Shown here one piece after another: positions 5,016 to 7,019 of a DNA stretch of 7,019 bases; the first letter of the stretch is position 1; the number at the start of each line of letters is the position of its first letter. The notes beneath the pieces are model-generated. The model saw only the letters and a program-made list of their open reading frames with translations, was not told the origin of the DNA and did not search any database. This DNA is from a virus (Duplodnaviria > Heunggongvirae > Uroviricota > Caudoviricetes), in IMG/VR virus record IMGVR_UViG_2534681998_000017, positions 1 to 7,019 of that record, one strand, 5' to 3'. The position numbers and the translations under genes were made by a program.

Positions 5016-6697
5016 TCAATCTTTATCGTAAAAACTGCCACGCCTGGCACGGGCGCGCCGTTCCATTTCTGCCCTGACCATTTCGCCGACCAGTTTCGCC
5101 AGTTCGCGGGGATTCTGCGTAACAACGTTATGCAGATGAACATGAATTTCACCGCCAAATCCGGAGGCAACAGGCTCCCGGTTACGGGAAGTTGCAGGAA
5201 CTGATGCCACTGGCGATCGTATGGCCTCCACCACCGGGCGGGAGCTGGCCGCAACAACAGGGACCAGCGCCGGAGGCAGCGGAGCCGGGACCACGGGTGT
5301 GATATTAATTGCGGGGGCAGGCTTACTGACCTGCGCAATCTTCCGCTCCTGCCACTCCCCACGAACAGCAAGTGCGCGGGGCAGGTTCTTAAAGACAATA
5401 TCGCCGGGGCCAATGCGTTTTTTTGTCTCATCAACCAGCTTACCTGTGTTATCAGCAATTTTGCTGAGTCTGCGTAGCGTGCCGGTATTGCTGTCTGTGA
5501 GAGGTTTGTTGTCTTTGGGTTTATCATCTCCGGTGCCATTGCTATTTCCCGCAGACTTCGGCGGATTGATTTTCGCAATGTCTCCCTGAAACAGAGCAAC
5601 CTTGTCCTGAAGAATGGCCGCACGTTGTGCGTCTTCGATTTTCTTGCGCGCCCTTTCCGCTTCATCCGGAAGCACACCGAGTTTTTCAAGTATCCACGCC
5701 AGCGTATCCAGCAACATTTTTGCAGGCGTCAGAACAAGCTGTAACGCACCACCAAGAACGTTACCGAATACCTCGCCAGCACTGGTACATTTATCCAGCG
5801 TTTCCTTGCTGGACTCCATCGGTGACAGCAGCGATTTAAACCAGTTAAACACCTGGCTGAACCGCTTCCGATTACGTCAAAAACAGGGCCAAACCGTTCA
5901 AAGGTGTCGCGCAACGGGGTCAGCCTTTCCATAATCCCGCTGAACACCCCGGCAAAGAAAGCCCTGATAGGATCCCAGTATTTCCAGATAAGAACGGCAG
6001 CTCCGGCAAGCGCAGCCACGATAAGACCAACCGGACTGAACAACGCCCCAATAACGCCTCCCAGTAAAGAAACGGAACCCGTCACCATTCCCCATAGCGC
6101 AGGTAACACCCTGACGACATTCATTGACCGGGTAAGAATGTCAAAACCAAGACGCAGGGTGGCCAGCTTCCCGTAAAGCACCCCAATAACCAGCGACAAC
6201 GAGCCAATCGTTGCAGTCATTGCCAGCAACGCACCGCCTGCTATCAGTAGCTGGCGCGTCAGTACCGGATGGGCCTGCGCCAGCGAGGTGATTTTTTCAA
6301 GCACCCGCGTGAGCCACTGCGTGACAGAACGCAGCGGACCGTCAACCAGATCACTGATGCGAATACGAAGACCTTCCCATGCGCTGTCGAGATTTTTCAG
6401 GTCCCCATCAAGATTATCAGCCATTACTTTTGCGACGCGATCGGCCTCTCCCCTTGCCCCCTGCAATTCTCTGGTCAGTTTTTGCAGCTCTCCTGAACCA
6501 GCCGCCGCAACAAGCGTCTGCAAACCAACGAACGCCTCTTCTCCGGCGATGTCCTTGAAGAAGGAGACCTGGTCCACCTGTCCGTATTTTTGTGTCGCCT
6601 TATAGAGATCAAGCAGCACATCCTCCATCGGGCGCATTTTGCCTCTGGCGTCAGCAACTGACACCCCCAGCTCTTTCAGTGCATCAGCCGCAGCTTT
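5016..6697 (-). pseudogene. phage tail tape-measure protein gene, P2 gpT-like, frameshifted and 5'-truncated
   Basis: Two overlapping minus-strand ORFs in different frames (5729-6718 and 5016-5852) together read as one tape-measure protein. The upstream part has the ...[31 protein letters not shown]... core and a hydrophobic Gly/Ala-rich helical segment; the downstream part has VFNWFKSLLSPMESSKETLDK..., a Pro-rich stretch and a charged C-terminus. The frame change is confined to 5853-5876. The 5' end is missing: at about 6698 the sequence becomes IS-derived. Confidence 0.75.
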
Positions 6698-6698
6698 T

Positions 6699-6848
6699 GG
6701 CGGTGATGGTGGGCTCACCAGCGCTGAACGTCAGCGTCTGAAAGAGCTGGAACGTGAAAATCGTGAACTGCGCCGCAGTAACGATATCCTTCGCCAGGCT
6801 TCCGCTTATTTTGCGAAGGCGGAGTTCGACCGCCTCTGGAAAAAATGA
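6699..6848 (+). CDS. IS3-family transposase OrfA, C-terminal fragment (5'-truncated)
   Basis: Frame open into stop TGA at 6846-6848. Recognisable OrfA sequence starts at about [14 protein letters not shown]. The upstream in-frame sequence is antisense to the tape-measure gene, not transposase. Confidence 0.7.
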
Positions 6849-7019
6849 TGCCACTGCTGGATAAGCTGCGTGAGCAGTACGGGGTCGGACCGGTATGCAG
6901 CGAACTGCATATTGCCCCGTCAACGTATTACCATTGTCAGCAACAGCGACATCATCCGGATAAACGCAGTGCCCGTGCGCAGCACGACGACTGGCTGAAG
7001 AGAGAGATACAGCGCGTAT
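6845..7019 (+). CDS. IS3-family transposase OrfB, N-terminal fragment (runs off the window)
   Basis: ATG-ATG at 6845-6850 in the -1 frame relative to orfA; open reading frame to the window end (58 codons). Confidence 0.7.

Follow-up and report, generated by a model that had tools for sequence, protein, structure and literature searches.

The sequence analysed here, referred to below as "the window", is the whole of a 7,019-bp draft contig, AMTN01000077.1, from the assembly GCA_000304835.2 of Escherichia coli 8.0416, an O157:H7-type strain. The left half (1-3435) is a segment of a lambdoid prophage containing the 3' end of lom, a 971-aa side tail fibre and the 5' part of tfa. The locus at the right end, annotated as "prophage Sp13, P2-like phage" in Sakai, is the cryptic P2-like prophage Sp13 in a state of decay; its tail tape-measure gene is cut short and is followed, up to the end of the contig, by a fragment of an insertion sequence of the IS3 family. 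The joint between the tape-measure gene and the IS, which is the subject of this report, is carried by one draft contig from a 2012 assembly, and the reliability of that contig has to be discussed together with the biology.

There may be an assembly error in the left third of the contig. From 179 to 3435 the window is base-for-base identical to a lambdoid lom-stf-tfa segment (L020), and from 3351 to 6708 it is base-for-base identical to Sp13 of the complete O157 genome FDAARGOS_293 (L021), the switch from lambdoid prophage to Sp13 lying inside an 85-bp identical stretch of tfa (3351-3435). Many draft contigs (L004-L012) show this hybrid join, but not one of 5,426 complete E. coli genomes does. 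A mis-join that the repeat induces again and again is the probable cause, or else the join belongs to an unfinished lineage in which a real tfa-tfa recombination took place. Closer to the left end, two single-base deletions relative to the lambdoid lom gene, at 64 (a run of six G reduced to five) and at 154 (a run of three T reduced to two), break the lom reading frame and are what pyrosequencing errors typically look like where coverage is low at the end of a contig. We also observed that the Rfam model IS009 (RF02111, described as "Gene") matches positions 3507-3705 on the plus strand with 191 bits, within the tail fibre assembly gene.

On the Sp13 side, the tail gene gpU (4515-5009, minus strand; Pfam Phage_P2_GpU, 131.5 bits) lies immediately downstream of the remnant of a P2-type tail tape-measure gene, gpT (5016-6708, minus strand). 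The latter assignment follows from homology and from position, with gpU directly downstream and the gpE side deleted, and the remnant has a partial match to Pfam PhageMin_Tail (PF10145, 36.2 bits). Strain LSU61 (O157:H7) has the gene intact, at 2,808 nt (L003 10248-13055); the remnant is 99.8% identical to this copy and represents its C-terminal 60%, or about 564 of 935 codons; the 1,114 nt at the 5' end (about 371 codons) are gone, in line with the first-pass annotation of this sequence, which had described the N-terminal region as missing. The alignment with LSU61 also reveals a 1-nt deletion, and so a frameshift, at 5860-5861. It splits the intact-length copies of complete O157:H7 genomes (L013-L017) into ORFs of 696 and 233 aa, and RefSeq marks the gene as "frameshifted". 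Because ordinary O157:H7 genomes carry this same frameshift, we consider it to be older than the large deletion described below. Being both 5'-truncated and frameshifted, the gene no longer has a complete uninterrupted reading frame.

Other strains have accumulated different lesions in the same gene. Further frameshifts occur in the Sp13 tape-measure gene of some strains (L024-L026), with ORF calls of 444, 264 and 233 aa, which is consistent with relaxed selection on the gene; the 264-aa variant was considered as a possible deletion and rejected, the extra frameshifts being responsible for it. One draft (L005, GCA_044826725.1) carries at 7667-7696 an independent and different deletion, which leaves 614 bp more of the tape-measure gene than the window has (up to L021 position 5855) before the gene joins the yecA flank, so that deletions have ended in this gene on more than one occasion.

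The insertion sequence begins at 6699. By megablast, positions 6699-7019 (plus strand) are identical at 321 of 321 bases to positions 232-552 of IS1203/IS629, an IS3-family element with thousands of copies annotated in RefSeq; the numbering is that of a complete 1,310-bp IS1203 copy (L001 1270-2579, with the orfA start at L001 1324), so that window 6699 is IS position 232 and window 7019 is IS position 552, where the contig stops inside the element. The window lacks IS positions 1-231, which hold the 54-bp leader, left inverted repeat included, and the first 59 codons (177 nt) of orfA. The first-pass annotation, made from the letters alone, had placed the switch from the antisense tape-measure gene to the middle of orfA near 6698 and had estimated the loss at roughly 240 bp of the IS left end and about 60 codons; the alignment bears out both figures closely and settles the identity of the element. 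The end of the element that carries the left terminal inverted repeat (5'-TGAACCGCCCCGG...) is absent, and no 25-mer resembling IRL or IRR with at most 4 mismatches was found anywhere in the window; there is no complete left inverted repeat at the junction.

The 3' part of orfA (6699-6848, plus strand), identified by alignment to the annotated IS1203 CDS and by translation, comprises codons 60-108 and the stop; the N-terminal helix-turn-helix part is gone, and the remnant in the window has no Pfam match, whereas the full 108-aa OrfA carries PF01527 (HTH_Tnp_1). The first 58 codons of orfB follow at 6845-7019 on the plus strand (gene call, 100% identity to IS1203), the contig ending before the DDE/rve domain. 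The stop of orfA (6846-6848) overlaps the ATG of orfB (6845), giving the orfA/orfB overlap with its -1 frameshift region, and the ALIL pseudoknot, the RNA element that stimulates frameshifting between orfA and orfB in the IS3 family, is intact at 6803-6919 on the plus strand (Rfam RF01497, full-length match of 121.5 bits for a gathering score of 50), as it is annotated in RefSeq copies of IS1203. Having lost its left inverted repeat as well as the N-terminal, DNA-binding part of OrfA, this copy is immobile and unable to transpose. The fragment can still act as a patch of homology for recombination.

A three-way alignment of the window with a complete IS and with an intact tape-measure gene shows that the 10 bp GGCGGTGATG at 6699-6708 are common to both parents. 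At a random join, the chance of at least 10 shared bases is about 8e-6. On the other hand, 16 repeats of at least 10 bp exist between the 7.4-kb flank and the IS, to be compared with about 9 shared 10-mers expected by chance, so the mere existence of such a repeat is not evidence for a dedicated mechanism. The informative point is that the breakpoint falls exactly on one of these shared 10-mers.

Reading frames that cross the joint are by-products of the deletion. One, at 6639-6848 on the plus strand, encodes a chimeric 69-aa protein (EKK75924.1) in which 20 antisense tape-measure codons are fused in frame to OrfA residues 60-108; no other protein among about 15 billion falls into its cluster, and it is specific to the joint and probably meaningless. 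Another, the longest tape-measure ORF across the joint (5729-6718, minus strand), has its first GTG in the IS-derived sequence; the depositors placed its start at 6664, which gives a 311-aa protein, EKK75923.1. Two joint-specific ORFs are unique in an index of 153 billion genes, and exact protein look-ups with three such ORFs returned the source contig alone. At the nucleotide level, none of the 5,426 complete E. coli genomes has the joint, species-representative genomes contain neither a 40-mer nor a 27-mer across it, and the 27-mer is likewise absent from metagenome contigs. Searching the literature by accession, we found no report of the contig. The deletion between Sp13 and the IS appears to be private to one strain and undescribed.

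The arrangement from which the joint can be derived is present in the closest complete genomes. In FDAARGOS_293 (L021) the tape-measure gene and a complete, plus-strand IS1203 lie 3.9 kb apart in matching orientation. Read in the direction of the window, the order there is a truncated IS3-family copy, tfa', an acetyltransferase gene, gpU, the frameshifted tape-measure gene, gpE, a tail protein (E+E'), the tube, the sheath, a gpD stub, a 100-bp IS30 stub, the complete 1,310-bp IS1203 (plus strand, reading away from the tail genes), the rest of IS30, tRNA-Leu/Cys/Gly, pgsA and uvrC. GGCGGTGATG occurs in this genome in the tape-measure gene (L021 5232-5241) and again at IS positions 232-241 (L021 9382-9391), two direct copies 4,150 bp apart, of which the window has one. 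When the 4,150 bp between them are deleted in silico, the product matches window 3351-7019 with 0 mismatches: one of two direct short repeats is kept and the interval is lost exactly. A rare allele of the window, the A at 6050, also leads to these genomes, being found in 3 of the 5,426 complete genomes (FDAARGOS_293, 7.1_Anguil and 146N4), all three of which belong to the 9-12 genomes with IS1203 at exactly the same site. The breakpoints, the microhomology and the precursor in the closest relatives can be read directly from these alignments, as can the exact reconstruction. Related draft contigs extend 3.6-4.4 kb further, through the tape-measure N-terminus, gpE, the tube and the sheath.

These comparisons with genomes that have kept the tail cluster allow us to judge the interpretation offered in the first-pass annotation. 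Its view of the locus as a deletion scar, and not a simple insertion, is upheld by the exact reconstruction, and the upstream tail genes that it supposed to have been removed (gpE, E+E', tube and sheath) do occupy the interval in FDAARGOS_293. Its proposal of an IS-adjacent deletion or recombination is likewise supported, with one refinement: the deletion beside the IS is not a canonical adjacent deletion, the end of the IS having been spanned by an event between 10-bp direct repeats.

Three other candidates were considered and rejected. The draft contigs L004-L012 share window 1-6708, but they have no IS1203 near Sp13 to supply the partner. The IS3-family element found in the Sp13 IS30 of genomes of the TW14359/EC4115 type, probably the site IS.33 of PMC3271280, occupies a different position; it is a 95% variant, and 10 mismatches separate it from the window. 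Strain 90-3040 (L002), which at 97% query coverage could be taken for a carrier of the same joint, actually has an independent and complete IS insertion elsewhere in the tape-measure gene. As a separate observation, two O157 lineages have IS3-family elements inserted in the IS30 that interrupts gpD in Sp13, each at a different position (L021 9051-11500; L023 13529-15978): IS1203 at 100 bp from one end and the 95% variant near the other end, in the same orientation. On the opposite side of Sp13, the IS3-family copy at L021 685-1688 is also truncated; it retains positions 1-1057, its right end is gone and it abuts a plasmid-partition gene. Because this copy, seen beside Sp13 in complete O157:H7 genomes, is truncated, Sp13 already bore one scar of a deletion internal to an IS.

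We think that the best explanation of the joint, with a probability of about 0.77, is a local in-vivo deletion within Sp13 between the two GGCGGTGATG repeats, the partner being the IS1203 copy 3.9 kb away. On this reading the event is a microhomology-mediated deletion of roughly 4.15 kb. The ancestor would have had gpU, the frameshifted tape-measure gene, the tail genes, the gpD stub, the IS30 stub, a complete IS1203/IS629 and the remainder of IS30, in this order; a single event would then have joined GGCGGTGATG at about nt 1105-1114 of the tape-measure gene to GGCGGTGATG at IS positions 232-241, with loss of one copy of the repeat and of the whole 4,150-bp interval. The tape-measure N-terminus, gpE, E+E', the tube, the sheath, the gpD stub, the IS30 stub and the left end of the IS would all have been removed together. 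That this happened in vivo in the lineage of 8.0416, and by which process, is what we infer from the product.

The IS partner copy is assigned by parsimony, because the 321 bp present in the window are the same in every IS1203 copy. The joint could accordingly be real and yet involve a different IS629 copy elsewhere in the chromosome, through a larger deletion, an inversion or some other rearrangement at the same 10-bp microhomology; an O157 genome holds about 20 identical IS629/IS1203 copies (a single record can give matches at as many as 40 places; PMC3271280), and the contig stops before the element does. We nevertheless regard this as improbable. The nearest relatives, as defined by the rare SNP, have an identical IS 3.9 kb off, so oriented that a simple deletion is enough, and a distant partner requires an extra coincidence and usually a second joint.

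It is equally improbable, in our opinion, that the joint arose artificially, when a chimeric read or a mis-assembly at a coverage gap added 321 bp of IS to a contig that should have run on into the tape-measure N-terminus. The suspicion is a legitimate one: the joint occurs in one 2012 draft assembly and nowhere else, that contig has homopolymer indels near its left end and a lambdoid/Sp13 join seen in no complete genome, and sister assemblies of the same project break inside the tape-measure gene (partial proteins in strains 8.2524 and PA9). A repeat-induced mis-join is not the explanation, however, because assemblers require overlaps far longer than the 10 bp available here before they join two sequences. 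A random chimera, for its part, would strike IS629 with a probability of about 0.5% (some 26 kb of 5.5 Mb) and would show at least 10 bp of microhomology with that same P of about 8e-6; it would moreover have had to hit exactly the repeat family that adjoins in the closest relatives, and tape-measure reads at normal depth would outvote a lone chimeric read. Finally, a simple IS insertion into the tape-measure gene, of the kind carried by 90-3040 (a complete IS3-family copy flanked by both halves of the gene, at a site corresponding to window 6417-6422), or an adjacent deletion of the classical transposase-mediated type from the IS end, is refuted by the alignment and has next to no chance of being correct, both events demanding an intact IS terminus where IS 1-231 are gone, the window has no IRL-like sequence and the joint is at IS position 232-241.

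If the local deletion between the GGCGGTGATG repeats is accepted, two routes to it may be envisaged, and from the sequence we would give them roughly even odds. The first would be linked to transposition, through template switching or microhomology end joining involving IS629 and IEE: replication primed at the right-hand flank would copy the IS leftwards and jump at position 232 to the upstream repeat, and right-flank replication switching at this position would be expected to give exactly the product seen in the window. The second would be ordinary RecA-independent slippage or illegitimate recombination between the short repeats. The transposition-linked route is rated equally likely because a spacing of 4.15 kb is long for simple slippage.

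Several published observations bear on the first route. IS629-associated deletions are common in O157, and IEE, a PrimPol-helicase, has a microhomology end-joining activity (PMC9943667); IS629 excision and flanking deletions in O157 depend on the transposase together with IEE. A strand-switch model during copy-out replication has been put forward; in it, some deletions extend into the IS itself (bioRxiv 10.1101/2023.06.07.543989). O157 genomes contain about 20 IS629 copies (PMC3271280), and both prophage decay and structural polymorphism associated with IS629 are documented in them (PMC3271280; PMC9943667). IEE-dependent excision or deletion of IS629 takes place during transposition and needs both iee and an active transposase in the cell; the window does not contain iee. 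The microhomology signature of the joint is compatible with such an event, and an "IS-driven" origin by IS629/IEE-linked microhomology joining is plausible; the IS may, on the other hand, merely have supplied one of the two short repeats. A more specific proposal would be that the joint is a natural "frozen" product of aborted IS629 copy-out replication, in which a template switch aided by the PrimPol-helicase IEE occurred at a 10-bp microhomology 4.15 kb upstream before the left end was reached. We find this rather doubtful, though worth stating; if true, it would provide in-genome evidence for the strand-switch model of IEE action, and would mean that IEE-type events leave truncated IS copies as well as IS-free scars.

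As to its significance, the joint is an ordinary example of prophage erosion, and this kind of event is well known. It has little importance beyond strain 8.0416. To the known decay of Sp13 in O157:H7 it contributes one precisely reconstructed step; the order of the steps would be the tape-measure frameshift, the arrival of IS30 in gpD, that of IS629 in IS30 and then the 4.15-kb microhomology deletion. It also offers a natural example of how truncated IS copies in EHEC can arise by short-repeat deletions that span the end of an IS. Such joints in draft contigs require confirmation at the level of the reads.

It remains to place the locus among known systems. Sp13 of Sakai is a cryptic P2-like prophage beside tRNA-Leu/Cys/Gly, pgsA and uvrC. 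The window shares with Sp13 of Sakai/O157:H7 the order tfa, acetyltransferase, gpU, tape-measure gene, as well as the tape-measure frameshift; compared with Sp13 in complete genomes it additionally lacks 4,150 bp, and its left side runs into lambdoid lom-stf instead of a truncated IS. With IS629/IS1203 (1,310 bp), the dominant IS of E. coli O157:H7, the copy in the window has in common the 3' end of orfA, the orfA/orfB overlap and a full-scoring ALIL, whereas it is without the left inverted repeat, the leader and codons 1-59 of orfA that the intact element has, and its right half falls outside the contig.

Among the processes that remove DNA, classical IS-mediated adjacent deletion, which proceeds by intramolecular transposition, always preserves the IS terminus at the new joint; DNA beside the IS is lost in both cases, but here the terminus is not kept. 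RecA-independent deletion between short direct repeats is established E. coli genetics, and the present case shares with it the two direct 10-bp repeats, the retention of one of them and the exact deletion of the interval, the product being no different. IEE/transposase-dependent excision of IS629 (Kusumoto 2011, as related in PMC9943667; bioRxiv 10.1101/2023.06.07.543989) involves the same IS, the same host lineage and microhomology joining, and its adjacent deletions range from a few nucleotides to more than 40 kb. These events are described as removing the IS, whereas in 8.0416 the left 231 bp have been lost and 1,079 bp of the element should remain.
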